The position numbers and the translations under genes were made by a program. Shown piece after piece: positions 238 through 54,414 of a stretch of 64,000 bases of DNA. The number at the start of each line of letters is the position of its first letter. Position 1 is the first letter of the stretch. The stretch is from Patescibacteria group bacterium (GTDB taxonomy: Bacteria > Patescibacteriota > UBA1384 > JBBRAU01), in NCBI GenBank assembly GCA_038206475.1, contig JBBRAU010000002.1, positions 13,892 to 77,891 on the forward strand, written 5' to 3'. The notes beneath the pieces are model-generated. The model ran no database searches and was not told the DNA's origin. It saw only the letters and a program-made list of their open reading frames with translations.

Positions 238-313
238 GGGCCTGTAGCTCATCTGGTAGAGCGCAGCATTCGCATTGCTGAGGTAAGGAGTTCGAGTCTC
301 CTCAGGTCCACCA
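238..313 (+). tRNA. tRNA-Ala (anticodon CGC)
   Basis: 76-nt cloverleaf read by eye: acceptor GGGCCTG/CAGGTCC with G3:U70 Ala identity pair, D-arm GCTCATCTGGTAGAGC, anticodon loop TTCGCAT, T-arm GGAGTTCGAGTCTCC, encoded CCA. Confidence 0.85.
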
Positions 314-1869: not shown

Positions 1870-1945
1870 TGGTGGACCCTACCGGATTCGAACCGGTGAC
1901 CTTCTCCATGCCATGGAGACGCTCTACCAACTGAGCCAAGGGCCC
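1870..1945 (-). tRNA. tRNA-Ala (anticodon GGC)
   Basis: Reverse complement folds as a 76-nt cloverleaf: acceptor GGGCCCT/AGGGTCC with G3:U70, anticodon loop ATGGCAT, T-arm GGTTCGAATCC, encoded CCA. Confidence 0.85.
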
Positions 1946-3770: not shown

Positions 3771-3854
3771 CGCAGCAGTTGAAAATTAATCATTAACATG
3801 GTAGAAGATATAATCTCTGTCCTTTATACCCAGTCTACCAGAAGGAGACCACAA

Positions 3855-4850
3855 ATGGCCCCTGCAACCGTTCGCTTCGGCACCACGTACAGTCCTAGCC
3901 ACGCGGCCTGGACAATGGACAACCGGTTTAAAGCAATCAGCTGGCAAGAAGCACTATCGGCGGTACATGAGCTGAATCTGAAACGTCTGCGCATCGCGGT
4001 GCCTTGGCGCGATTGCGATGAGCAACTTGGCCTGGCTTGGTTGTCCGACATGCTAAAACAAGTAGATCACTCCGGTGTCAGCATCACCATCGCCTCCGGC
4101 TTAAAGACGCCGCGCTGGCCAGAAAATTACCCGCCTACTGACCTGCTGGCGGCCCATCCGCTTCCAGAGCGCAGTGAATTTACTGATGTCTACCGCCCAG
4201 CCCTTGAAGCCTGGTGGCAGCGCCTTTACACCGAGGTGCATCCGTACCTACACCTTGTCGAGGCGATCCAAGTCGAAAACGAGCCGCGTGACTTCTTTGG
4301 CGAAGGTGATCGCCGCATTAGCCTCTCGATGTTGCAGTGGGAGATGGCGCTGGTGCACAGCCTGTTCCATCACCAACAGATCGTCACAACAGTCGGCGCC
4401 CTCGGCGGCACACCGGCGATGCTGTATGGCTACAGCGGCGTCAACCGCAAATGGCGGGAGATGCTGGCATTAGCCCCCAGCAATTTCCGGCTTGGCCTTA
4501 ACCTCTATCAAAAAACTTTCTGGCATGGCTTGCGGCTCAGTGCCAGCCCGCAAGCTTGGAAAAAATTCCGTCACTACGTCCAGAGCGCCCGAGATTCGCA
4601 CCTGCAACCGTTTGTGTCTGAGCTACAAGCCGAGCCGTGGGACAGCCCTCAGCGGTTCGATTACCACGAGATCAACGGTAACCCAACCTGCCGACCCGAG
4701 CAGGTTGAAGCGATGATCCGCAGCGTGCTTGCCGCCGGTATCACTGACATTGACCTGTGGGGGCTGGAATTTTGGCTGCGCTGCCGCCAGCGCTCTAGCA
4801 GCGGCTGGATGGCTCACGTTAAACAGCTGGTTCAAAAGTACCAGCTGTAA
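3855..4850 (+). CDS. Putative glycoside hydrolase (TIM-barrel, NEP catalytic motif)
   Basis: QVENEP motif; start set at ATG 3855, preceded by AAGGAG at 7-nt spacing (ORF track begins at 3798). Confidence 0.45.
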   Translation: MAPATVRFGTTYSPSHAAWTMDNRFKAISWQEALSAVHELNLKRLRIAVPWRDCDEQLGLAWLSDMLKQVDHSGVSITIASGLKTPRWPENYPPTDLLAAHPLPERSEFTDVYRPALEAWWQRLYTEVHPYLHLVEAIQVENEPRDFFGEGDRRISLSMLQWEMALVHSLFHHQQIVTTVGALGGTPAMLYGYSGVNRKWREMLALAPSNFRLGLNLYQKTFWHGLRLSASPQAWKKFRHYVQSARDSHLQPFVSELQAEPWDSPQRFDYHEINGNPTCRPEQVEAMIRSVLAAGITDIDLWGLEFWLRCRQRSSSGWMAHVKQLVQKYQL

Positions 4851-5672: not shown

Positions 5673-6236
5673 TTATTTGGTTACCCCGTTGCATGTTTTG
5701 GCATTCCAAAAGCCCAGCCCGGCGGCTTTGGCCGCCGTTTCTACCTGTCTGAAGGTGCCTTGCGCTTGATATGGCTTATCATAGGTGTACTCGTGGGCAA
5801 AGCCTTCGGCAATCAGTTTTTGATTAATGAGCGTACCGTCAGCCAAAAACACATAGCGCAGCAACCGGCCATACTTATCTTGGTCGTCTTGGCTGGTATC
5901 TGGCAACAGTTTGACGCGCTGACCGTCAAGCAGCTTATGTGCCTCCGTCGACGCCTGCGGCCCAAAGCACTGTACCGGTTTGCGTGGGTCTACCACTTCC
6001 GGCGTATCGATGCCAATCAGGCGCACCCGGTCTGTCTTCAGGCGCGAGGTTTTTACGTCAATGGTGTCGCCGTCAATTACTTTGGCCACGGGTACTAACC
6101 CGTCGTTTGGTTGGCTGCTGACATTGTCGGCGGTCGTGTGCCAATCGAAGTGGCTGATCTCACTTACGGCCACTACAACAAAGGCGACGATCGCAATAAG
6201 CAGCAGCCAACCGACAATTACTCTCCGTTCAGGCAT
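5673..6236 (-). CDS. Thermonuclease (staphylococcal-nuclease-like), membrane anchored
   Basis: DGDTIDV...RVRLIGIDTPE SNase motifs; start taken at internal ATG 6236 giving an N-terminal signal anchor (longer ORF runs to 6404). Confidence 0.75.
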   Translation of the reverse strand: MPERRVIVGWLLLIAIVAFVVVAVSEISHFDWHTTADNVSSQPNDGLVPVAKVIDGDTIDVKTSRLKTDRVRLIGIDTPEVVDPRKPVQCFGPQASTEAHKLLDGQRVKLLPDTSQDDQDKYGRLLRYVFLADGTLINQKLIAEGFAHEYTYDKPYQAQGTFRQVETAAKAAGLGFWNAKTCNGVTK

Positions 6237-6318
6237 ACGTTTAGTGTAGCCGAGCCGGCTGTACACGTCATTTTTACCAAGTTGCTCACGTTTGTCACAC
6301 TTATAATAAACACTTGAA

Positions 6319-7002
6319 ATGAAAGGGATCACGCTGCATGGCACCCCGGAGGGCTGGCGGAAAATGCCAGTCAAAACCGGGACCGTACGGCTCCACAGAA
6401 CCACGCCGGGGCGGCTGTGGTTTCAAACGCTCATCGTGGAGGAGGGCAGGGAGCATGTGTTCCTGCCCGATGGCTCCGCCGTGGTCAAGGGTCTCGGTGG
6501 GGTCACCACCCTGATACCGGGCCCTAAATACGGCGGCGGCGAAGTCACCCCCGTGACGACGCCGGCCGGGATGGTAGTGGTGAACACCACGACCACCCCG
6601 GGGTCAGCTCGGACACTTCTAAACGCCCGCGGGTGGGGCGGGTATATTCTTGACCCGCTCACCGCAACGGCAACGCCATTCGGCTGCCCCCCAATCCGGT
6701 GGGCAGCCGAACTGCGACCGGACCAGTTCATAGTTGTCGACCCAGGCGGCTACTACGCCTACCGAGTCGACGTGACCTTCCCCATCAACCCCCGCCGCGT
6801 CCAGGGTGACGTTGGCGGCAACGGCAGGTTCGACCTGTCGGATGCCCTGTTGGCGTTGTACTTGCTTCACGGGGATATCAACGCCAACCCCGGCCAGAAA
6901 CAGGCCGCGGACGTCGATGGCGACGGCTTCGTAACGCTGGAAGACGTCATCCGGATGCTGTACGCAGCAACCGGAACGCCATTCAGCTCCCCGCTCTGGT
7001 AA
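6319..7002 (+). CDS. Protein with C-terminal dockerin-like (paired EF-hand Ca-binding) domain
   Basis: DVGGNGRFDLSDALLALYLL and ADVDGDGFVTLEDVIRMLY repeats; by eye the gene is markedly more GC-rich than its neighbours, with CGG/GGG/CCG codons. Confidence 0.55.
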   Translation: MKGITLHGTPEGWRKMPVKTGTVRLHRTTPGRLWFQTLIVEEGREHVFLPDGSAVVKGLGGVTTLIPGPKYGGGEVTPVTTPAGMVVVNTTTTPGSARTLLNARGWGGYILDPLTATATPFGCPPIRWAAELRPDQFIVVDPGGYYAYRVDVTFPINPRRVQGDVGGNGRFDLSDALLALYLLHGDINANPGQKQAADVDGDGFVTLEDVIRMLYAATGTPFSSPLW

Positions 7003-7033
7003 TCGGGCGGGGAACATCAAAAAAACAAACTAC

Positions 7034-7066
7034 AGCCCTCGGCTTTACCGCCGGGGGCTTTTTTAT
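7034..7066 (+). terminator. Rho-independent terminator after the dockerin-like gene
   Basis: 10-bp stem AGCCCTCGGC/GCCGGGGGCT (one G.U) followed by T6. Confidence 0.6.
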
Positions 7067-7165
7067 GCTCTACGTTCAGATTGACTATCATTTGTGCAGT
7101 CGCGATTTTGCGCCCGCCTTCTGCAACAGCGCGTTGCACTGGCATTTATGCTAAGCTCTAGGCAA

Positions 7166-9562
7166 ATGACTGGCCCGGAACGACGCGAAATAGAGCAAAA
7201 ATGGCAACAGCGGTGGCAAGACGACCGCATTTTTGCAGTGGACTTGGCCAAGGCTGACCACAAATTCTACCATCTCAACATGTTCCCCTACCCCAGCGGC
7301 AATTTGCACGTGGGCCACTGGTACAACTTTGCTGTCTCGGACATTGCGGCTCGCGCCGTTCGCCGTCAAGACAAAACCGTCTTCAACCCGATGGGCTTTG
7401 ACGCCTTCGGCTTGCCGGCTGAAAACGCCGCCATCAAGCACGGCCTCGACCCAGCCGCTTGGACGGAGCAAAACATCAGCTCGATGCGTACGCAGCTGCA
7501 AAGTACCGGCGCCAGCTTTGATTGGTCAAAAGAAATTGCCACCTGCCGGCCGGATTATTACCGCTGGACACAGTGGATGTTCCTGTTTATGTACCAGCAC
7601 GGCCTGACCGAGAAGCGCGAGGCGCCGGTTAACTGGTGTCCGAAAGATCAAACCATTTTAGCCAATGAGCAGGTTGTCGGTGGCAAGTGTGAACGTTGCG
7701 GCAGCGAAGTAATTTTAAAGAAATTGCCGCAGTGGGTATTTAAGATTACTGACTACGCCGAGCGACTGCTTAAAGATGTTGACGCACTGGACTGGCCAGA
7801 AAAAACCAAAACCATGCAGCGCAACTGGATCGGCCGCTCTGAAGGGGCTTATGTTGAGTTCAGCTTGGCTGACACGCCTGATACGCGCTTAAAAGTTTTT
7901 ACCACACGCGTGGATACGCTCTACGGCGTGACTTACTTGGTGGTCGCTCCAGAACACAGCCTCACCCCCAAACTGACGGCTGAGGGCCACACAGAGGCAG
8001 TTGAAGCCTACGTAGAGTCGGCTAGCCATAAATCTGAGCTGGAGCGGACGGAACTGCAGAAGCAGAAAACCGGCGTTTTCTCTGGCAGTTACGCTATCCA
8101 TCCGTTGACCGCTGAGAAACTGCCTATTTGGATTGCCGACTATGTGCTGGCTACGGTTGGCACCGGCGCCGTGATGGGCGTGCCGGCCCACGATGAACGT
8201 GACTGGGAGTTCGCCAAAAAACACGATCTGCTGATTGTGGCTGTTATCCATCCTGCAACGGGCGAGGTCAATGCCAATCAAGTCGTTACCGAACCGGGAA
8301 AGTTAATTAATTCGGCTGAGTTTTCTGGCCAGACAAGCGAAGAGGCCAAACAAACGATTGTCGCTAAACTCAAAGAGCTGGGCCTAGGTCAGCCGGCCGT
8401 GACATACCGTCTACGCGATTGGGTGGTGTCACGCCAGCGCTACTGGGGCGCCCCTATCCCGATTGTTTACTGCGGCACATGCGACACGGTGCCGGTACCG
8501 GCCGCCGAGCTGCCGGTGCTGCTGCCGACCGATGTTGATTTTAAGCCAACCGGCGAATCGCCACTAGCTCGCTCCGAAAGCTTTAGCCACACCACCTGTC
8601 CGCGGTGCGGCAATGCGGCGAGGCGCGAAACCGACACGCTTGATACCTTTGTTGACTCCAGTTGGTACTTCTTCCGCTTTTTGTCGCCCGACAATACAGC
8701 GGCATTTACCGATCAGGCGTTGGCCAAAAAATGGCTGCCGGTTGACCTGTACATCGGCGGCGCTGAGCACTCGGTGCTGCACCTGCTGTACGCCCGCTTC
8801 TTCACGAAAGTGCTGTATGACCACGACTTGTCTCCCGTCAGCGAGCCGTTCCAAAAACTGCGCCACCAAGGTACAATTCTCGGGCCGGATAACCAAAAAA
8901 TGTCCAAATCAAAAGGCAATGTAGTTGATCCGGATGCGTTGGTCGCCGAGCACGGCGCCGATGTTGTGCGCAGCTACCTGGCCTTTATGGGCCCATACAA
9001 CCAAGGCGGTCCGTGGCATCAGGGTGGACTTGTGGGCGTTGAACGCTTCTTTAACCGTGTTGAACGCTTAGTCATCGAGTCGGCTGCAGCTAGCAGCGAG
9101 GTCGGTGATAGTGCTGGACGCGAGCGACATAGTGTCATCAAAAAAGTTACGGAGGAAATCGCTGAGCTGCGTTTCAATACAGCGCTGGCGGCTTTAATGG
9201 CATGGGCAAATAATTTGGAGAAGCGCGGCGCCAGCCGCGAAGATCAAGAGGCGCTTACTTCGCTACTCAACCCGTTTGCACCGCATCTGACTGAGGAGCT
9301 TTGGCAGCATTTGGGGCATGAGCCATATTTGGCACTGGCGGCCTGGCCAGAATTTGATAACAGCTTGACGGTTGAAGACCGGGTAATCGTGGTCGTGCAA
9401 ATCAATGGGCGCTTACGCGGCTCATTTGAGACCCAGCGCCAGCAATCGGAAGCCGCATTGATCCGCCAAGCCCGCCAAATAGAGGCTATTCAACACTACT
9501 TGACCGGTGAACCGAAAAAGACCATTGTCGTGCCTGACAAGCTCATCAATTTTGTGATTTAG
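7166..9562 (+). CDS. leuS: Leucyl-tRNA synthetase
   Basis: HVGH-type motif (PYPSGNLHVGHWYNF), KMSKSKGN motif; start chosen at ATG 7166 (ORF track begins at GTG 7094). Confidence 0.95.
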   Translation: MTGPERREIEQKWQQRWQDDRIFAVDLAKADHKFYHLNMFPYPSGNLHVGHWYNFAVSDIAARAVRRQDKTVFNPMGFDAFGLPAENAAIKHGLDPAAWTEQNISSMRTQLQSTGASFDWSKEIATCRPDYYRWTQWMFLFMYQHGLTEKREAPVNWCPKDQTILANEQVVGGKCERCGSEVILKKLPQWVFKITDYAERLLKDVDALDWPEKTKTMQRNWIGRSEGAYVEFSLADTPDTRLKVFTTRVDTLYGVTYLVVAPEHSLTPKLTAEGHTEAVEAYVESASHKSELERTELQKQKTGVFSGSYAIHPLTAEKLPIWIADYVLATVGTGAVMGVPAHDERDWEFAKKHDLLIVAVIHPATGEVNANQVVTEPGKLINSAEFSGQTSEEAKQTIVAKLKELGLGQPAVTYRLRDWVVSRQRYWGAPIPIVYCGTCDTVPVPAAELPVLLPTDVDFKPTGESPLARSESFSHTTCPRCGNAARRETDTLDTFVDSSWYFFRFLSPDNTAAFTDQALAKKWLPVDLYIGGAEHSVLHLLYARFFTKVLYDHDLSPVSEPFQKLRHQGTILGPDNQKMSKSKGNVVDPDALVAEHGADVVRSYLAFMGPYNQGGPWHQGGLVGVERFFNRVERLVIESAAASSEVGDSAGRERHSVIKKVTEEIAELRFNTALAALMAWANNLEKRGASREDQEALTSLLNPFAPHLTEELWQHLGHEPYLALAAWPEFDNSLTVEDRVIVVVQINGRLRGSFETQRQQSEAALIRQARQIEAIQHYLTGEPKKTIVVPDKLINFVI

Positions 9563-9600
9563 CCTCCCCGCTCTAGGCCCAGCCAAGCGCCGGGTTTTTC

Positions 9601-10047
9601 TTGACTTCCACGCCTAAAATGCGTATGGTGACGGTAATGACTGAGCCTTCCACCTTTCTCGTCTCGGTCCAAACGCTGTGGCAATATGCGGCGGATGAGC
9701 CGGTGCTCTACACATTTGACGGACCAATTACGCTCGACGAACAGCGTACCGTCCACGCCGAAGGCACTGTTAAGCTGACTAAACTGGCCGATGATGAAAT
9801 ATTGGCCGAACTGGCCCTACACGCTCTGACGCCACTGGCTTGCGCCCGCTGTCTGCGTACGTTTGAGCACGAGATGATGCTTGAAGCCAACGAAGTGTTC
9901 AACCGCTTCCCAGAGCCAGAGCAGTTCCCTATCTCGGCACGCTTACAGATTGACCTGGCCGCGCCTATACGCCAATTAATTATCTTAAACGAACCGGGCT
10001 TCCCTTTGTGCCAAGCAGATTGCCCAGGTACAATGGAATTATCCTAG
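9601..10047 (+). CDS. YceD/DUF177-family protein (start uncertain)
   Basis: C-terminal Cys motifs (CARC..., CQADCPG), typical neighbourhood upstream of rpmF. Confidence 0.55.
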   Translation: MTSTPKMRMVTVMTEPSTFLVSVQTLWQYAADEPVLYTFDGPITLDEQRTVHAEGTVKLTKLADDEILAELALHALTPLACARCLRTFEHEMMLEANEVFNRFPEPEQFPISARLQIDLAAPIRQLIILNEPGFPLCQADCPGTMELS

Positions 10048-10070
10048 AGAAACGCCAAAGGAAAGGTGAA

Positions 10071-10448
10071 ATGAAAGCGCACGCGCTAATCCGATCTATT
10101 TACCTGTATGTGGCGACTTTAATCGGCCTGATCATGATGATTATTGCGTTGTACAACTTAGTCACCCTTGGACTGAAAGTAGCCATATTCCATCAGGCCG
10201 ATCAAAGTTATCCCTATGCCATGCCAGCCTGCGCGCCGGTGCCAGCCGACCCAGAAATCAGCGCAAGCCCGATGCCGGTTAAATCACTGCCCAACTGCGT
10301 CAGCTCGGTTGACCAGACGCAGCAAGACACTCAGCGCACCGCAGATCACCAGCGTACGGCGGTGAATAGCATTGCCGGATTGATCATTGGCCTGCCGCTG
10401 TACTGGTACCACTGGCAGTTAATCAAGCGCGACCAACAGACAAGTTAA
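10071..10448 (+). CDS. Hypothetical membrane protein (two predicted TM helices)
   Basis: AGGAAAGG SD before ATG 10071; hydrophobic N- and C-terminal segments. Confidence 0.5.
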   Translation: MKAHALIRSIYLYVATLIGLIMMIIALYNLVTLGLKVAIFHQADQSYPYAMPACAPVPADPEISASPMPVKSLPNCVSSVDQTQQDTQRTADHQRTAVNSIAGLIIGLPLYWYHWQLIKRDQQTS

Positions 10449-10542
10449 GTAAATTATTTAATAAATTGAATGATGCCAGGCTTTGCCCGGTATCAAAAGC
10501 ACCTACCGGATAGGGTGACAGCGAGCAACGTGAGTACCCTTA

Positions 10543-10575
10543 GGGGAAACCACTAGCGAAGCTCGGGGTTTCCCC
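10543..10575 (+). promoter_or_regulatory. Hairpin in the rpmF leader (GGGGAAACC/GGTTTCCCC, 15-nt loop)
   Basis: Perfect 9-bp inverted repeat immediately upstream of the rpmF SD GGAGAAAG; no T-run. Confidence 0.35.
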
Positions 10576-10592
10576 TCGGAGAAAGTATTCCC

Positions 10593-10838
10593 ATGGCAAT
10601 GCCGAAAAAGAGAATGAGTCAAACGCGCACCGGTACTCGCCGGAGTCAGATTCAGGCCGTCCTGCCAACCATCGTTAAATGCGCTCAGTGCAGCTCTGCC
10701 GTTGCTCCACACACTGCCTGCGCCAATTGCGGCAGCTACCGCGGCCGCGCTGTCATTGATGTCGAAAAAAATGCTCGCAAACTGGCTGCTCGTCAGGCCG
10801 CCGAGCACGATCACGGCCACGATCACGCAACAACCTAA
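10593..10838 (+). CDS. rpmF: 50S ribosomal protein L32 with His-rich C-terminal tail
   Basis: MAMPKKRMSQTR..C..C....C..CG.YRGR pattern. Confidence 0.85.
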   Translation: MAMPKKRMSQTRTGTRRSQIQAVLPTIVKCAQCSSAVAPHTACANCGSYRGRAVIDVEKNARKLAARQAAEHDHGHDHATT

Positions 10839-10840
10839 GC

Positions 10841-11380
10841 ATGGCCGGCAACCGTCATTTAAGTCGCACTATTCTGCTGCAGACGCTGTATGAGGCTGAT
10901 CTGCGTCCGTCAGCCAATTTTGAGGAGATTTTTCAGCGCAACGCTGCCCTGTTCCCTAACGACTTAGACGTGCCGTTTATGCGCCACATCGCTGAAGGTA
11001 TCGCTAACAGCAAAGAGTCAATTGACCAACTCATTTTAACCGCCGCCCCAGAATGGCCCATTGAGCAAGTGGCGCCGATCGATAAAACTATTCTGCGTAT
11101 GTCCATTTTTGAGCTGCTGTTTTGGAATGAAGTGCCGCCAAAGGTAGCCATTAACGAAGCGGTTGAGCTGGCTAAGAGCTACGGCGGCGAAAGTACCTCC
11201 AAATTCGTCAACGGCGTCCTGGGCACGATCTACCGTCAAAGCGACAAGTACGAAGGCGATGATGCAGCGGAGGTGCCCGTCGTGCCGGCGCCCGAAGCGG
11301 TAGAAACAGTCGAAGCGCCACTAGCGGCTAAGACAGATGAAATGCCAGGAACAAAGGAACCCGATGCCAGCATCACCTGA
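10841..11380 (+). CDS. nusB: Transcription antitermination factor NusB (with C-terminal extension)
   Basis: ILRMSIFELLF...INEAVELAK...FVNGVLG conserved blocks. Confidence 0.85.
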   Translation: MAGNRHLSRTILLQTLYEADLRPSANFEEIFQRNAALFPNDLDVPFMRHIAEGIANSKESIDQLILTAAPEWPIEQVAPIDKTILRMSIFELLFWNEVPPKVAINEAVELAKSYGGESTSKFVNGVLGTIYRQSDKYEGDDAAEVPVVPAPEAVETVEAPLAAKTDEMPGTKEPDASIT

Positions 11381-12074
11381 CCTGAGCCCGCTCGAGACGG
11401 CGACCGGTATCCACTTCGAGAACCGATCACTCCTTGAACGGGTTTTTATCCACCGCTCCTACTTGAACGAACACCCAGGTGCCAACAGCGAACACAATGA
11501 GCGCCTCGAGTTTTTGGGTGACGCCGTGTTGGAGCTGATAGTAACCGAATACCTGTACAAAACACTGGAGAGCCGCGAGGGTGAGCTAACCAACCTGCGC
11601 TCAGCGCTAGTGCGAGGCCAACACCTGGCCGAGTTGGCTTTAAGCCTCGACTTTGGCACCTATTTAATGCTCTCTCGCGGTGAAGAAAAAAGCGGCGGCA
11701 AAGAGAAACATCTGCTGTTAGCCAACACTTTTGAGGCCTACGTTGGCGCTATCTACTTAGAGCATGGTTATGACGTAGCCAAAAAATTTGTGACTGATAC
11801 GGTGCTGGCCCAATTGCCGAAGATTCTCGAAGAGAACCGGCACATTGACCCGAAAGGCCGCTTCCAGGAACTAGCCCAGGAGCAAATTGGCCTGACGCCA
11901 ACCTACCGAGTGCTATCTGATACCGGTCCGGATCATGATAAAAATTTTGTCGTTGGCGCCTACATTGGCAGTGTTTTAGTAGGCCAAGGTGAAGGCTCTA
12001 GCAAACAACGTGGCCAAACCAAGGCCGCCGAAAACGCTCTGGCCAACCAAGCCACCTGGCCACCAAGTCGCTAG
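11364..12074 (+). CDS. rnc: Ribonuclease III
   Basis: ERLEFLGDAVLELIV signature and C-terminal dsRBD; start ambiguous (11337 or 11364). Confidence 0.9.
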   Translation: MPASPDLSPLETATGIHFENRSLLERVFIHRSYLNEHPGANSEHNERLEFLGDAVLELIVTEYLYKTLESREGELTNLRSALVRGQHLAELALSLDFGTYLMLSRGEEKSGGKEKHLLLANTFEAYVGAIYLEHGYDVAKKFVTDTVLAQLPKILEENRHIDPKGRFQELAQEQIGLTPTYRVLSDTGPDHDKNFVVGAYIGSVLVGQGEGSSKQRGQTKAAENALANQATWPPSR

Positions 12075-12219
12075 GCGACTAAACTTCGCTCTTTAACGCT
12101 CTCCGAGAGGAATCAACGCTTGAGTCAATCGGAGTCCCCGCTCTGGAGGAAACCATCCGGCTCAGCCAATTGCTAGGGACATAGTTACTTGCCCGCGCCA
12201 ACCGCGCAGGCTTTTTGGG

Positions 12220-13158
12220 TTATTTTAGTGGGTTTACCTTGGCGCGGATAGCCGCAGTGAGTGCCGAGACAGTATCTGCAGCGGCTTGTTTTGTATTGCC
12301 ACGAGCGTGAAGCACGACGGTGATGAGCGTCCGACCGTCAACTTCCTTGGTCATGGCGGCCAAGTTGAACCCGGCTTCATTAATATAGCCGGTTTTGCCG
12401 CCGATAAAGCCTGGCAGTGGAGATTTACTAAACAATAGGTTGGTTGAAACGAGCTTATAGCTCTTTTGGCCGCCCTGGTTATGCACCGTCAATCGCTCGG
12501 TATTCATCAGTTTTTGGACCGTCGCATTGCGGGCAACAATTTCGAGCAGCCGAGCAGTATCTTGCGCTGATCCGACAGTTGTCGGGTCAAGCCCGGCTGG
12601 ATCAGCGTAGTGCAGGCTAGTTAAGCCAAGAATCATGGCATTGCGGTTCATGGCCGCGATGAAGGCTGCGCGCTTATTTTGACCGGCTGGATTTGCGGCA
12701 GTTTGCCCAGCAGCGAGCGTCTCGGCAGCGTCGTTGGCCGACGGGATGAGCACTCCGGCCAGCAAATCTTTGACCATCAGCTGGTCGCCTGACGCGAGGC
12801 CCATTTTAGCCTCTGGCAGTGCGGTGACGGCATCGGGAACTACGAGTACATCATCCAACCGGTAGGTTTTCAGCGTCGTCAAAACCGTCATCAATTTAGT
12901 CAGCGAGGCTAGCGGTAGCGGTTGAGTGGCGTTGTTGTTGGCTAGAACAGCTCGCGCCCGGGTGTCAAAGACGAACTCAGCGTCGGCTTGAGACAACAAT
13001 GCCGGGTCCGCTGCAGCCGGATAGGGCCTGGCGGTTTCGGATTGGCCCATTGCCACCGCTTGGCGCGCCGGCAGGGCTGCCGGCAAGGTTTGAACAACCA
13101 TGCTGGTCGCCTGTGAATGCAGCCCGAGCGCAAACAGCCAAGGTGCGAGCCCAATCAC
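12220..13158 (-). CDS. D-alanyl-D-alanine carboxypeptidase (S11 family)
   Basis: SLTK (SxxK), SAND (SxN) and KTG motifs; N-terminal signal-like segment. Confidence 0.8.
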   Translation of the reverse strand: MIGLAPWLFALGLHSQATSMVVQTLPAALPARQAVAMGQSETARPYPAAADPALLSQADAEFVFDTRARAVLANNNATQPLPLASLTKLMTVLTTLKTYRLDDVLVVPDAVTALPEAKMGLASGDQLMVKDLLAGVLIPSANDAAETLAAGQTAANPAGQNKRAAFIAAMNRNAMILGLTSLHYADPAGLDPTTVGSAQDTARLLEIVARNATVQKLMNTERLTVHNQGGQKSYKLVSTNLLFSKSPLPGFIGGKTGYINEAGFNLAAMTKEVDGRTLITVVLHARGNTKQAAADTVSALTAAIRAKVNPLK

Positions 13159-17685: not shown

Positions 17686-18693
17686 TTAGAACTGGCTCAA
17701 GAAGCGGATGTCATTTTCGACAAGCAGACGAATATCCGGAATATCCGTCGACAGCATGAGCAAGCGATCAAAACCCATGCCAAAGGCATAGCCTACATGC
17801 TCGGCCGGATCAAGCTGCATCTCACGCAAAACGTTTGGATGGACCATGCCGGCCCCGCCAGATTCGAGCCAGCCAGTGTGGGCACAAACGCGGCATCCCT
17901 TTCCTTGGCAGAGCAAGCAGGTAATATCAACCTCAACGCTCGGCTCAGTAAATGGGAAGAAAGAGGGGCGAAAGCGTGCTTTGGCACCGCGGCCAATCAA
18001 TTGTTCGGCAAACTGGTTCAAGGTCCAGAGTAGCTGGCGCAAATTAGCGCCCGGCTCAATAACTAACGCTTCAAACTGGAAGAAAGAGGATAGGTGGCGG
18101 GCATCGGTCGCTTCGTTGCGAAAAACGCGGCCTGGGTACATTACCCGTAGTGGCGGCCGCCGATTCTCAAGTAAACGAATTTGCATATCGGTTACCTGCG
18201 TCCGCATGACTAACTCGGTTTCACCTGTCTCGTTCCGCTCGGCCGATGTGAGGTAAAAGGTGTCCTGAATGTCGCGCGCCGGGTGATCCCGCGGCACGTT
18301 CAGGCGATCAAAATTATATTCGACCGTTTCAATTTCTGGGCCACTGGCGTATTCATAGCCAAGCGATTGAAAGATACTGATGAGCCGGCGCATGAACTGC
18401 GTTTCGGGGTGCAGATGTCCGGTCATAGTCGGCCAGACTACCGATTGCTCTGACCAGCCGGCCTCAAGCGGAACTTCAGCTGTTTGCTCAGCAAACAGTG
18501 CTTCTAGCTCTGCCCGCAGCGCGTTGGCCTCAGCACCGGCTTGGCGACGTGCCGCCTCAGGCAGGTTCTTCAGCGACCGCAGCAACTCTGTCAGTTTACC
18601 GCTGCGCCCTAAGTATTGCTGCCTAAGGGAAATTTTATCGCTGCCAGCTTCAAGCGCTGCCAGCGCCTCCGAGTGGAGTTCTCCAGCCGTCAT
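17686..18693 (-). CDS. pheS: Phenylalanyl-tRNA synthetase alpha subunit
   Basis: Class II motifs (FRNE..., FFPFTEPS, GMGFDRL). Confidence 0.9.
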   Translation of the reverse strand: MTAGELHSEALAALEAGSDKISLRQQYLGRSGKLTELLRSLKNLPEAARRQAGAEANALRAELEALFAEQTAEVPLEAGWSEQSVVWPTMTGHLHPETQFMRRLISIFQSLGYEYASGPEIETVEYNFDRLNVPRDHPARDIQDTFYLTSAERNETGETELVMRTQVTDMQIRLLENRRPPLRVMYPGRVFRNEATDARHLSSFFQFEALVIEPGANLRQLLWTLNQFAEQLIGRGAKARFRPSFFPFTEPSVEVDITCLLCQGKGCRVCAHTGWLESGGAGMVHPNVLREMQLDPAEHVGYAFGMGFDRLLMLSTDIPDIRLLVENDIRFLSQF

Positions 18694-19079
18694 TTCGACC
18701 TGCCGGGCTGGAGTGAGAACGACGACTTTGCGCCAGATCGAAAGAACAGCTCCAAAAGTACCGCCGCCAACAGCAGCGGCAGTGCGTTAGCCCAACTGAG
18801 TAACCGATTGGCTTGCAACAGTAGCAAAATAACGATTGCGCCAGAGACAAGCCCCGCTAAACGCAGCCTCTGGCCAAATTGGCGAGCAGAGCCAAGACGA
18901 GCTAACCACGACAGCAGCAGACAGATCGCCGATGATAAGACGAGCCACAGCACAACGTAAAATAAACTAGCTTGCTCCGCCGTCATCTTCAGTGGATTAA
19001 CCGTGGTCAGCATCACATACAAACCAGCACCGGCAAACAGCAGCACCGTAAAGCAGACAAAGAGCAGCGATTTAACCAC
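18690..19079 (-). CDS. Hypothetical membrane protein
   Basis: Hydrophobic 129-aa ORF between rbfA and pheS, 4-nt overlap with pheS start. Confidence 0.4.
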   Translation of the reverse strand: MVKSLLFVCFTVLLFAGAGLYVMLTTVNPLKMTAEQASLFYVVLWLVLSSAICLLLSWLARLGSARQFGQRLRLAGLVSGAIVILLLLQANRLLSWANALPLLLAAVLLELFFRSGAKSSFSLQPGRSK

Positions 19080-26936: not shown

Positions 26937-27383
26937 CTAGGCTGCTTTAGTTGAAGTTTGGGTAGTCAAAATGCCCAAGTGAGCGGCGACGCTCTTGGTC
27001 GTGGCAATGCCAGACAGGCTGAAGCGTTTGCTCATGTTCGGCGTGGCGACAATTTTGACAGTACCAGGGCGCGTGCGGAGCAGGCCAACCTGTTTTAAGC
27101 GCTGCGGCGTAATAACTGCTCCCTCGTCAAAGCTCGCTTCAAGCGCCGAAAAACGGACGGTGGCCGATTTTGGCGTCAGTGAGCGGAAACCGTTCAGTTT
27201 TGGCAGGCGTTGCACCAGCGGTGTTTGCCCACCTTCAAAGCGCCGCGGGATGTTGTGGCCCGTGCGCGAGTTTTGACCCTTCGTACCGCGGCCAGCGGTT
27301 TTACCCTGGCCAGCGGCAATACCGCGCCCGACACGGCGGCGGCTCTGCTTCGGCATTGAGACGCGAATATCATGCAGTTGCAT
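26937..27383 (-). CDS. rplO: 50S ribosomal protein L15
   Basis: MQLHDIR...GRGIAAGQGKTAGRGTKGQ; start at internal ATG 27383. Confidence 0.85.
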   Translation of the reverse strand: MQLHDIRVSMPKQSRRRVGRGIAAGQGKTAGRGTKGQNSRTGHNIPRRFEGGQTPLVQRLPKLNGFRSLTPKSATVRFSALEASFDEGAVITPQRLKQVGLLRTRPGTVKIVATPNMSKRFSLSGIATTKSVAAHLGILTTQTSTKAA

Positions 27384-28116
27384 TCGTCTCCTCTGTAGCC
27401 AACACCTCGGCCTTTTTAGTCCGTGGCTTGACGGTTTTCTTGACCGGCGTCGCTTCAACTAGTGCGACTTCCTCAACCATTTCGGCTGTTTTGTGGCTGT
27501 CGGCTTGAACGCGGCGCGGACGGTCTGTTTTGAAAGAGGATAGCGCCAAGAGCGTCGCTTTGGTCATGTTAATTTTATTTGAGCTGCCCAAACTCTTGGA
27601 CAGTACGTTTTTGATTCCCGCCAACTCAATGACCGCCCGAACGGCGCCGCCAGCGACAATCGAAGTGCCAGGAGAGGCAGGCTTGAGCAATAAACGCACG
27701 CCAGAGTAACGGACAGTGCTCTCATGCGGGATCGTGTCATTGATAATAGTGACGGTTTGCATATGGCGTTCGGCCTGCGTTTTGGCTTTTTGTACGGCAC
27801 CCGCCACATCGCCGGATTTAGCCACACCCATACCGACCTTGCCAGCACGGTTGCCCATAACCACCAGCGCTCGGAAGCGGATACGGCGACCACCTTTAAC
27901 GACCCGGGAGACACGGTCAACTGAGACTACACGGTCGTCATACTCACTGGTTGAGCGGCTCCGTTGACCGTCGGTCCGGCCGCCGCCTTGGCGACCGCGG
28001 CGCTGACCGTCTGATCCGCCAGCACGTCCGCCCCCCATTGACCGCGAATAATTCGCTGGAGAGGTGGTTGGCCGTGTTTGAGCTGCGCTCGAGGTGGTTG
28101 GTTGTTCTTCAGGCAT
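27370..28116 (-). CDS. rpsE: 30S ribosomal protein S5 (N- and C-terminal extensions)
   Basis: VVKGGRRIRFRALVVMGNRAGKVGMGVAK core; no rpmD (L30) between rpsE and rplO. Confidence 0.9.
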   Translation of the reverse strand: MPEEQPTTSSAAQTRPTTSPANYSRSMGGGRAGGSDGQRRGRQGGGRTDGQRSRSTSEYDDRVVSVDRVSRVVKGGRRIRFRALVVMGNRAGKVGMGVAKSGDVAGAVQKAKTQAERHMQTVTIINDTIPHESTVRYSGVRLLLKPASPGTSIVAGGAVRAVIELAGIKNVLSKSLGSSNKINMTKATLLALSSFKTDRPRRVQADSHKTAEMVEEVALVEATPVKKTVKPRTKKAEVLATEETNATA

Positions 28117-39804: not shown

Positions 39805-40206
39805 ATGATGATTGATCTTCAACATATTGATGCGCGTGCTGAACCGCTAACAGAAGAAAAAGTGCAGGCCATCCTGCTTGGATGCCGGATACGGACAGGA
39901 AAAGCAGCCAGAAAACTGTCGGCCGAATGGTATGAACTGAAATATTACCCAAAGTGGAAGGAGGGCTGGCTGCAGCTCAAAATACTGCGTGAAACCCCCT
40001 ATCCCGAGCGAACAGCCATGCTCTATCACTTCCTCGTCACCTTGCACCTTCACCACTGCTTATCCCACACGCACCAACGTCTTGTCGGGCCGATCACGCT
40101 CTGCGACGCCATGGATGAACAAGTGGCGCTGCTCTGCCAAAATGTCAGCCGTAACCCACCGTGGCGGGAGTGGTGGCTGTTGCAGCATATTCCTGGATAC
40201 CGCTAA
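39805..40206 (+). CDS. Hypothetical protein (His/Cys-rich segment LHLHHCLSHTH)
   Basis: 133-aa ORF with upstream AAAGGGG; ends at a hairpin terminator. Confidence 0.45.
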   Translation: MMIDLQHIDARAEPLTEEKVQAILLGCRIRTGKAARKLSAEWYELKYYPKWKEGWLQLKILRETPYPERTAMLYHFLVTLHLHHCLSHTHQRLVGPITLCDAMDEQVALLCQNVSRNPPWREWWLLQHIPGYR

Positions 40207-42480: not shown

Positions 42481-42891
42481 TCAAAGAAGGCCGAGGTTTT
42501 GCTTATGACGAATAGAGGCTTTGGTACTGTCGCCGGATTTTCTCGGTCGGAGCGACCGGTATTGTAGGTTTGGCGGCCAATATAGCCTCCACGGGTTTAA
42601 CCTGACAAAAAAACGGAGGCGCATGGCGCCTCCGAAGAGTCGTTTTTGAGATTTACATGACTCGACGATGCACACATCATCGGCATGGTCGAACATCGAC
42701 ACAATGACGAACAAGAGCAGCAGCGGATACGGCTCAACATTCTCGATCAGGCCAGGAGCGCTTGGTAGCGTTATGCTGAAGTTGCCCGCCTGAGTATTGC
42801 CAGTTGACGGCGTTTTGCGCACGATGGGGCCGCTATTTCCTACAGGCAGCACGTCTGAATCAATGTGGATGACGGAGCGATTTTCAGGCAT
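42481..42891 (-). CDS. ORF of doubtful coding status downstream of the STAS gene
   Basis: Only open frame in the region; N-terminal two-thirds has plausible codon usage, but the frame runs through a strong terminator hairpin and a rare-codon W/R/P-rich tail. Confidence 0.2.
   Translation of the reverse strand: MPENRSVIHIDSDVLPVGNSGPIVRKTPSTGNTQAGNFSITLPSAPGLIENVEPYPLLLLFVIVSMFDHADDVCIVESCKSQKRLFGGAMRLRFFVRLNPWRLYWPPNLQYRSLRPRKSGDSTKASIRHKQNLGLL
42607..42634 (-). terminator. Strong rho-independent terminator
   Basis: 9-bp stem CGGAGGCGC/GCGCCTCCG with 3-nt loop, followed on the minus strand by U7. Confidence 0.65.
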
Positions 42892-43276
42892 TGGCTTTCT
42901 CCTGTTGCACGAAGGGAGCGAGAAACTGGACGGCTTCTTGCTCGGTTGCAAAAATAGTGAAGGTTTTCGTCAAGCCGGCGGCGTCTAGTACCCGTTGCGG
43001 TTGATCCGTGATCTGCAGCAACACGAGCTGACCCCCGTACCCGCGAATGCATCTGAGGGACCAGACAAGCCCTCCCAGCCCCGCCACGTCCATGTACGTA
43101 ACTAAGTGCATATTGAGGCCAATATAACGCCGGCCCAACAACTTCATTTTGACAACCATCTCGAGAAGACCAGGCGAGCTGTATGTGTCGAGTTCACCCT
43201 GAAGATCCAAAATGGTTACGCCGTCTACTTCTCGCTGCTCAATATCAAACTCCACCGACCTTCTCCTTATTGTCAC
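42884..43276 (-). CDS. STAS-domain protein (anti-sigma-factor antagonist-like)
   Basis: ILDLQGELD...LVTYMDVAGLGGLV...GGQLVLLQITDQPQRVLDAAGLTKTFTIFATEQEAVQFL; GTG start. Confidence 0.7.
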   Translation of the reverse strand: MTIRRRSVEFDIEQREVDGVTILDLQGELDTYSSPGLLEMVVKMKLLGRRYIGLNMHLVTYMDVAGLGGLVWSLRCIRGYGGQLVLLQITDQPQRVLDAAGLTKTFTIFATEQEAVQFLAPFVQQEKANA

Positions 43277-53403: not shown

Positions 53404-53827
53404 GCGGACGAGTATACACCAGACGGAGCGGGATATGAAGGGTGCGCCGGCGTTTTGCCTGCAACAAGCCAAGCGGTACAACGACCGTACCGTGGTCGAC
53501 GCTAGCACGAACCACATGGTGGCCGGCCACCTCAATACGGTCCAGCTCAACCTCAAAACCGGCCGGCTGCGGCAGTCTCAGCTGGATATTTTCAAGCACC
53601 AGCGGCAAGTGATTAGTAACAGTAATTTTCGCCACACCAACTTCACCGACAGCAAGCGGCTCGGGCGGCAGAACTTGTTCAATTTGCAGCAAGCGTGATG
53701 AAATTTGGTAGCCCACCGGGTTTTGGGCCGTCTCGGCTGGCAGGGCGGTTCGCCGTTGCCAGCACCAAAATGAGACTGCTGTTGCGCCGAGCTCCAGCAG
53801 CAGGGCGATAGCTACAAGCCCGGTCAT
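53393..53827 (-). CDS. Hypothetical membrane-anchored protein
   Basis: N-terminal TM segment; overlaps downstream obg start by 11 nt and the upstream gene by 4 nt. Confidence 0.4.
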   Translation of the reverse strand: MTGLVAIALLLELGATAVSFWCWQRRTALPAETAQNPVGYQISSRLLQIEQVLPPEPLAVGEVGVAKITVTNHLPLVLENIQLRLPQPAGFEVELDRIEVAGHHVVRASVDHGTVVVPLGLLQAKRRRTLHIPLRLVYTRPHAD

Positions 53828-54414
53828 GGCTGGGTTGAGCTGGCCTGAGGCGGCGCGGGTGTTGTCACCGTCAACGATGCTGGCTGGTCAATCTTCGAGA
53901 CCACGCCGTCCTGTTTGGTCAGCACTAGACTGTCGACTGGAATTGTCAAGTTAACTGCCGCAGACAGCGGCAGTGTACCAAGTGTCATCTGACCCTCGGG
54001 CAGCAAACTATCCGGCAGCATGACAGTCAACTTACGACTGGCCGCATCATAGTGCAGACCGGGTGTGTCTTCGGCTGCCGAAAAACCGGCAAATGCCGGG
54101 TCGACCGGCAGCGTCAGCTCAACTGACTGCAGTGAGCTGTCTGGTACATCGAGAATGAGCGTGGCGGCATCAGTATGATCTTCGGCTAATGTTAATTTTT
54201 CCGGCAAAAAGAATAGGCTTGGCGTTGAGCTAGCCGTCACAATCGCCGTTGGCTGGTCGGCGTAACTGGCGGCGCCGCGTCCTAGCCACTCGCTGCCGCT
54301 GACACCGAGTACCAAGAGAACCGCAATCAAAAAACCGTAGCGGTGGAACGTCTGACGCAGCCACTGCCAAAAGAGCCCGAGCGGGTGCGCGCGGTGAGGA
54401 TGGCGCTTCTGCAT
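53824..54414 (-). CDS. Hypothetical membrane-anchored protein
   Basis: Basic N-terminus then TM (GFLIAVLLVLGV) then soluble domain. Confidence 0.45.
   Translation of the reverse strand: MQKRHPHRAHPLGLFWQWLRQTFHRYGFLIAVLLVLGVSGSEWLGRGAASYADQPTAIVTASSTPSLFFLPEKLTLAEDHTDAATLILDVPDSSLQSVELTLPVDPAFAGFSAAEDTPGLHYDAASRKLTVMLPDSLLPEGQMTLGTLPLSAAVNLTIPVDSLVLTKQDGVVSKIDQPASLTVTTPAPPQASSTQP

Follow-up and report, generated by a model that had tools for sequence, protein, structure and literature searches.

An open reading frame (ORF) at positions 6319-7002 on the forward strand of a 64-kb stretch of DNA from a Patescibacteria group bacterium (assembly GCA_038206475.1, contig JBBRAU010000002.1; hereafter the window, 64,000 nucleotides (nt) in full, to which all positions refer) encodes a protein of 227 amino acids (aa) that ends in a predicted type I dockerin. 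As we read it, this is a laterally acquired single gene, inserted between an SNase gene and leuS, which joins an orphan β-rich module to one type I dockerin and has a promoter and a terminator of its own; we give this reading as a whole a probability of about 0.55. An earlier note on this DNA, made from the letters alone, had proposed that the gene was a horizontally acquired adhesion or assembly module. The dockerin and the foreign origin stand, the latter with a z-score of 6.0 for third-position GC content, while the adhesion or assembly role is unproven, being drawn from the family name only.

The C-terminal dockerin

Profile and structure-database comparisons show the predicted C-terminus of the protein (aa ~160-219) to be a bona fide type I dockerin, because the Pfam family Dockerin_1 matches above its cut-off, the best matches among known structures are dockerins and the HMMER matches fall on aa ~150-225. 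The module, encoded at 6796-6975 on the forward strand (aa 160-219), consists of two F-hand segments, whose Ca-loops, DVGGNGRFDLSD in repeat 1 (nt 6808-6843, aa 164-175) and DVDGDGFVTLED in repeat 2 (nt 6910-6945, aa 198-209), are the two dockerin/EF-hand-like repeats that the earlier note had placed at the end of the protein. The loops lie 34 residues apart, and a hydrophobic stretch of helix-like character comes after each (ALLALYLL and VIRMLY, respectively), which is the two-segment arrangement of a dockerin. Judged by the residues expected at Ca-ligand positions 1, 3, 5, 9 and 12 of a loop (D, N/D, D/N, D/N/T/S and D, respectively), loop 2, D-V-D-G-D-G-F-V-T-L-E-D, is canonical.

The profile search that the earlier note had proposed came down on the side of the dockerin. 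Pfam Dockerin_1 (PF00404) aligned aa 163-210 with profile positions 2-49 of 57 (E=1.7e-5) and scored 25.3 bits against a curated gathering cut-off of 22.9 bits, whereas the EF-hand models PF00036, PF13405, PF13202 and PF13499 all stayed below their cut-offs (17.4/25.4, 16.7/25, 14.3/25.9 and 13.9/30 bits, respectively). An exhaustive HMMER search of 1.84e9 representative proteins gave 290 matches at E<=1e-3, and among the 150 listed, the query aside, all but a single protein (P0025, discussed below) align best at aa ~150-225. Many of the listed matches are multi-dockerin proteins, and all six of the dockerin-region matches that were scanned with Pfam carry Dockerin_1. The clusters to which the closest dockerins belong are metagenome singletons, except for one from a Clostridia metagenome-assembled genome (MAG), and give no pointer to a donor.

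The best matches in the PDB are likewise dockerins (8x39_A, E=1.7e-4; 4uyq_B, 6.3e-4; 4uyp_B, 7.6e-4; 2y3n_B, 1e-3), with EF-hand chains such as polcalcin and calmodulin appearing from E=0.05, about 100-fold weaker. Column by column, the module follows the consensus of 60 sequences, GDVNGDG.VD..DA.LAL....G...LT..Q..AADVDGDG.IT..DA..IL....G. A single-sequence AlphaFold2 model, at a mean predicted local distance difference test (pLDDT) score of 33, draws helices, with low confidence, at aa 174-184 and 207-218, the expected places of the dockerin helices.

Coding sequence and composition

The ORF, which has an ATG start and 227 codons plus a stop, is a real and intact coding sequence in the frame read by the earlier note. 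We draw this conclusion because an upstream in-frame TAA at 6307-6309 blocks any longer N-terminus, the other two forward frames are closed by 9 and 3 stops, the 227-codon frame stays open in only 38 of 20,000 nucleotide shuffles (a chance rate of 0.2%) and the GC content at third codon positions (GC3) is coherent along the frame, being >=0.63 in each 90-nt (30-codon) block. Two long antisense ORFs lie opposite the gene, and a family scan of both returned no match; coding on the opposite strand was rejected on this account and because codon-position GC favours the forward frame.

A foreign origin of this coding sequence is supported by its outlying GC3, its sharp compositional boundaries and its core housekeeping neighbourhood, all of which fit such an origin. 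The ORF is the most extreme compositional outlier of the window. Its GC content is 0.642, compared with 0.543 for the window, and changes in a sharp step at the ends of the ORF, from 0.415 in the spacer before it (6237-6318) to 0.642 and then to 0.509 behind it (7003-7165), so that the description of the gene as GC-rich relative to its flanks holds. When the window was covered with 6,332 sliding segments of 684 nt, the maximum of 0.648 fell in the segment starting at 6331, and 0.06% of the segments reached 0.642. The difference is concentrated at third positions: GC3 is 0.776, compared with 0.589±0.031 in the 46 other genes of the window (z=6.0), exceeding their mean by 0.19 and their maximum (0.655) by 0.12. 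The corresponding values for first and second codon positions reach z~1 only, which makes the GC excess a property of synonymous sites and no by-product of a Gly/Thr/Pro-rich protein. Expression-linked codon bias can be excluded as the cause because the highly expressed genes of the window (those for ribosomal proteins, EF-Tu and RpoB/C) come nowhere near 0.776 in GC3. Such a deviation in GC and GC3, with boundaries that coincide with the ends of an ORF, is the compositional mark of a horizontally transferred gene.

Codon usage, which the earlier note had suggested examining together with GC content, is likewise foreign to the window, and three of the four codons that it had called typical of high-GC donors are indeed enriched (CGG, 0.43 vs 0.15; GGG, 0.29 vs 0.06; ACG, 0.42 vs 0.24). 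The fourth, CCG, is not (0.40 vs 0.48), and among the proline codons it is CCC that is raised (0.30 vs 0.10). Codons ending in T are strongly avoided: CGT, ACT and AAT do not occur at all, and ATT (0.11 vs 0.63) and TTT (0.12 vs 0.60) are rare. A high-GC donor would be consistent with this composition, although it is unproven.

Expression signals

The gene is preceded by a perfect -10 hexamer, TATAAT, at 6302-6307 on the forward strand, 11 nt before the ATG as the earlier note had stated, and perfect copies of this hexamer occur only 7 times on both strands of the window (128 kb). Neither a Shine-Dalgarno sequence nor a good -35 element was found upstream of the ATG at 6319. From these positions, the leader of the mRNA would be very short, about 3-6 nt. 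Several other first genes, among them gyrA, leuS and the one that ends at 54414, share this geometry: a -10-like hexamer stands 7-13 nt upstream of the ATG and a Shine-Dalgarno sequence is absent. For this reason the promoter of the ORF looks adapted to its host. The pattern suggests that near-leaderless mRNAs may be common in this organism. It is shown by many genes that come first in their operons, with starts at 6319, 7166, 54414 (reverse strand), 63430 (reverse), 3770 (reverse) and 3798; internal genes of operons often have AAGGA.

Behind the gene, an intrinsic terminator at 7034-7064 (forward strand) bears out the strong terminator described earlier. Its stem (7034-7059; 10 bp, 8 of them G-C, with a 6-nt loop) is followed by a T-run and folds with -26.1 kcal/mol (z=-3.3), and it lies 32 nt past the stop codon and 100 nt before the ATG of the LeuRS gene at 7166.

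In front of the gene, an 82-nt intergenic region (6237-6318, GC 0.415) separates it from the divergently oriented SNase gene (5673-6236, reverse strand), the product of which is membrane-anchored. This spacer also contains a promoter-like site on the reverse strand, with GTGACA at 6298-6293, a 17-nt spacing and AAAAAT ending at 6270.

The N-terminal module

The remainder of the protein (aa 1-157, encoded at 6319-6789 on the forward strand) has a high content of G, T, V and P and is, as judged from the searches and the structural model, an orphan module that is probably β-rich. No Pfam family matched aa 1-160, 16-80 or 108-160 at E<=10, and the NCBIfam and PHROG scans gave no match for the module. 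In a word-indexed collection of 5.8e9 proteins, aa 1-158 had no relative at E<=10 and the whole protein matched itself only. Neither the whole protein nor aa 1-158 gave a match in scans of genomes, metagenomes and viral contigs or in tblastn searches of plasmids and phages, and a tblastn search of 160 fetched loci gave nothing significant.

The only protein that matches the N-terminal part is P0025, which has 1391 aa and 14 transthyretin-like/CarboxypepD_reg repeats (PF13620, PF23194). The segment at aa 21-59 (6379-6495, forward strand; GTVRLHRTTPGRLWFQTLIVEEGREHVFLPDGSAVVKGL) resembles the central hairpin of these repeats and shares with them the motif W..T.V.DGQFSLYLPDGSYEVEGY (W..T.V..G.F.L.LPDGSY.V.G). 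A comparison of this segment with the P0025 repeats by hhalign gave a probability of 45% over 38 columns (pairwise E=2.2e-4), and no Pfam match was obtained at E<=10. A transthyretin-like β-sandwich at aa 21-59 is thus a weak lead and does not amount to membership of the family. It was also considered whether an Ig-like domain and the dockerin form a shared unit, because some alignments overhang the dockerin as far as aa 92-137; this idea was rejected, as aa 100-160 taken by themselves reached no significance (best E of 0.18 among 150 sequences).

Two further features lie within the coding region. An in-frame direct repeat of 26 nt occurs at 6664-6689, where it encodes ATATPFGCP (aa 116-124), and again 101 codons downstream at 6967-6992, where it encodes ATGTPFSSP (aa 217-225) at the C-terminus, both copies being on the forward strand. 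The copies are identical at 22 of 26 positions, a degree of identity that none of 300 codon shuffles reached, and the repeat may have arisen by duplication of a linker or be left over from a fusion of modules. The first copy overlaps a stable hairpin at 6674-6716 (forward strand; 19-nt arms and a 5-nt loop), for which the region 6655-6735 folds with -34.7 kcal/mol (z=-3.8), and no T-run follows it.

Neighbouring genes and host lineage

The neighbours that were examined encode DUF3048, iPGM, SDR, SNase, LeuRS, YceD, DUF5671, L32, NusB and RNase III, as well as D-Ala-D-Ala carboxypeptidase, pseudouridine synthase, the Asx-tRNA and Phe-tRNA synthetases, the products of the ribosomal operons, RpoA, Map, Adk, Obg, an M23/LysM peptidase, YbbR, CdaA, IF-2 and GyrA. 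All of these serve housekeeping or the maintenance of the envelope.

Judged from protein identity and gene order, the host is a divergent, Saccharibacteria-like Patescibacterium of an essentially unsampled lineage. The best relatives of its LeuRS are 44-57% identical (among 185,579 species genomes and the JGI metagenomes), and exact-sequence look-ups of LeuRS and SNase returned no other contig. The gene order leuS-rpmF-nusB-rnc, with dac following on the opposite strand, is common only to six Saccharibacteria/Patescibacteria loci, in which the amino-acid identity to window positions 7166-13158 ranges from 29-33% (dac) to 41-52%. Between leuS and rpmF, the window differs from these loci by additional genes, for YceD and a DUF5671 protein. 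DUF5671 is typical of the Patescibacteria radiation. The genes upstream of leuS in the syntenic but distant Saccharibacteria loci are unrelated to those of the window.

Several other observations were made along the window. At 26937-28116 (reverse strand), the gene for ribosomal protein S5 and the ORF after it adjoin, with no room for an L30 gene between them; that ORF presumably encodes L15, yet it had no Pfam match at E<=0.001. A missing L30 gene is reportedly also a feature of the candidate phyla radiation. Two tRNA-Ala genes, at 238-313 (forward strand, anticodon CGC) and 1870-1945 (reverse strand, GGC), flank the DUF3048 gene, and an Rfam scan found these two tRNAs only. An ORF of 350 aa at 3798-4850 (forward strand) had no match in Pfam, NCBIfam or PHROG and lacks an evident signal peptide; its GC3 of 0.655 is the maximum of the 46 genes other than the dockerin gene, and it contains a VENEPRD motif, which recalls clan GH-A glycoside hydrolases. 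Four ORFs of 129-196 aa had no Pfam match (39805-40206, forward strand; 42481-42951, 53824-54414 and 18690-19079, reverse strand), and those at 39805-40206 and 53824-54414 had no PHROG match either; the four could encode proteins peculiar to the lineage or be spurious.

Discussion

The reading that we prefer implies the following course of events. A single gene would have been acquired laterally and inserted between the SNase gene and leuS, where it would be expressed as a nearly leaderless mRNA that starts from its own TATAAT box and ends at its own terminator. The dockerin would fold on binding Ca2+, with site 2 canonical and site 1 weakened by a Gly at ligand position 3, and could then attach the N-terminal module to a surface partner, cohesin-like or otherwise, that is encoded elsewhere in the genome or present on another cell. 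The resulting protein might act as a tether or an adhesion adaptor. To do so it would have to leave the cell by a non-classical route, which is required because the protein has no Sec/Tat signal and which is the weakest step of the proposal.

A number of observations weigh against this reading. Dockerins work outside the cell, where they fold on Ca2+ binding, and the absence of a signal therefore conflicts with what is known of the family. Kyte-Doolittle hydropathy revealed no hydrophobic N-terminal signal peptide or membrane anchor, in line with the earlier note, which had seen no obvious signal peptide: the maximum over 10 residues in the first 70 aa is 1.47, near the value for cytoplasmic LeuRS (1.13), compared with 2.6-3.6 by the same measure for the envelope proteins of the window (SNase, DUF3048, YbbR and a C39-like peptidase), so that the protein lacks the mark of a secreted or surface carrier expected of dockerin proteins. 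A partner was not found nearby either, as none of the ~43 ORFs scanned in the window matched Cohesin, and no further dockerin-type loop occurs in any frame of the window. Within the module itself, ligand position 3 of Ca-loop 1 (D-V-G-G-N-G-R-F-D-L-S-D) is occupied by Gly, a residue that does not occur there in any of 777 loops from the 149 listed matches (N 480, D 228, T 32, S 21, G 0). The N-terminal module has no homologue in the species-representative genomes, JGI metagenomes or viral contigs, and the AlphaFold2 model, with the mean pLDDT of 33 given above, is uninformative, although it draws nothing but strands in the N-terminal part. As regards the acquisition, no integrase or transposase was found among the scanned neighbour genes, all of which have core functions; no direct (target-site) repeat brackets the ORF; the nearest tRNA genes (at 238 and 1870) are more than 4 kb away; and protein, genome, metagenome, viral, plasmid and phage searches did not find the donor. 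Finally, by leave-one-out synonymous-codon likelihood the gene (z=-1.9) ranks no lower than second from the bottom among 47 genes.

Several of these points would also be explained if the gene were a dead-on-arrival or decaying acquisition, that is, what is left of the 3' end of a once larger, secreted dockerin protein after its signal and its working domain were lost at insertion, and perhaps transcribed to no function. Besides the missing signal peptide, the degenerate loop 1 (0/777) and an N-terminal part that lacks any relative, such a remnant could account for the GC-rich tract beginning within ~10 nt of the ATG, in which case the start codon could be fortuitous, and for the internal repeat and hairpin, which hint at rearrangement. 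The frame, however, is open over 227 codons against a chance rate of 0.2% and is coherent in codon-position GC from the first block to the last; it is preceded by a rare perfect -10 box at the distance used by the host and followed by a dedicated terminator; and a fragment of a known enzyme should match the family of that enzyme, whereas aa 1-157 match nothing. We regard a remnant as unlikely on balance, and it stays alive as an explanation because the protein has no export signal, no partner and a degenerate loop 1. The absence of an export signal, together with the weak matches to the EF-hand models, polcalcin and calmodulin, would also suit an intracellular EF-hand-type sensor or buffer of Ca2+ that works in the cytoplasm and binds no cohesin. 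This seems improbable, given that all four EF-hand models remain below cut-off (13.9-17.4 vs 25-30 bits) where Dockerin_1 passes, that the E-values of dockerin chains in the PDB are about 100-fold better than those of EF-hand chains, and that the protein shares with the dockerin consensus the spacing of the loops, the conserved G that precedes loop 1, the DA..AL helix and the AAD in front of loop 2.

Two other explanations concern the origin of the DNA rather than the nature of the protein. If the gene were native and lineage-specific, with a composition produced by local mutation bias or selection, then its native-looking expression signals, the lack of mobility genes and a codon-likelihood z of only -1.9 would need no special account, and orphans would be expected in a host with no close sequenced relative. 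We nevertheless think it a poor prospect, in view of a GC3 that exceeds the mean by 0.19 and the highest of the 46 other genes by 0.12, ribosomal proteins and EF-Tu included, and of a shift that is restricted to the ORF and has sharp edges. The abrupt change of composition at both ends might instead reflect an assembly chimera, in which a GC-rich fragment of another organism was joined to the contig. A Logan contig from a separate assembly (SRR19962014, 1966 nt) runs over both junctions and on into the genes at either side with 100% identity, and this independent agreement argues against a chimera, as does the location of the junctions in a coherent promoter-ORF-terminator unit and not inside genes; a chimera is accordingly very improbable. 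The EF-hand, native-gene and chimera explanations are each less likely than either a remnant or the lateral acquisition of a working gene. A more specific variant of that acquisition, which we consider a long shot, is that this bacterium is epibiotic and took up a dockerin-tagged module with a so far unseen fold from a GC-rich organism that has not been sampled, perhaps the cell on which it lives, and that the module, released without a classical signal peptide, plugs into a cohesin-like scaffold on the surface of the cell that carries the epibiont. If this were true, cohesin-dockerin docking would have been re-used as a device for attachment between species.

Set beside known systems, the dockerin of the ORF is most readily compared with cellulosomal type I dockerins (PF00404; ScaB, 4uyq/4uyp; Cel48, 2y3n; Xyn10B, 2ccl; and the double dockerin of a serine protease, 8x39). 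Like these, it has two F-hand segments, each made of a 12-residue Ca-loop and a helix, and stands at the C-terminus of its protein. Unlike these, it belongs to a protein without a signal peptide and without a recognisable catalytic or carbohydrate-binding domain, its host is a Patescibacterium and no cellulolytic Firmicute, no cohesin is found in the window, and loop 1 carries a Gly. The multi-dockerin metagenome proteins, among them MEG2348494.1 from a Clostridia MAG, with 10 dockerins, and three others (P0003, P0008 and P0010), are the top matches to aa 158-220 at 36-44% identity, but they hold 3-10 tandem dockerins compared with one in the ORF and show no likeness outside the dockerin. Non-cellulosomal dockerin proteins are reportedly well known (Peer et al. 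2009, FEMS Microbiol Lett 291:1, as cited in PMC3821032). Like them, the protein of the ORF has a single dockerin joined to an unrelated module in an organism that lacks a cellulosome, and it adds a case in which the partner module is an orphan, a signal peptide is missing and the gene, in a core region of a poorly sampled lineage, has a foreign composition.

One of them is SEML1_0315 of the Saccharibacterium Southlakia epibionticum, an essential envelope protein with a dockerin domain, for which a role in host adhesion or glycan targeting has been put forward (PMC10633639). The lineage that carries the ORF belongs to the same broad group as Southlakia; SEML1_0315 is described as envelope-associated, whereas the protein of the ORF has no export signal and its N-terminal module has no relatives. 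For the dockerin-rich proteins of ultra-small Omnitrophota, attachment to host or prey has been proposed (bioRxiv 10.1101/2023.11.21.568195).

In summary, dockerins outside cellulosomes are common, and their partner is almost never assigned; for ultra-small bacteria that depend on a host, a role in attachment has been suggested for them but not proven. On present evidence the gene opens no new question, and if it were a decaying import, it would be an ordinary failed gene transfer. As a laterally acquired working gene, which is the reading that we prefer, it represents a compact case, with one orphan module, one dockerin and a promoter and terminator of its own, seemingly imported recently into a conserved core region. 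It would thus be a convenient object for testing which partners these dockerins have and by what route a protein that lacks a signal peptide could reach the cell surface.

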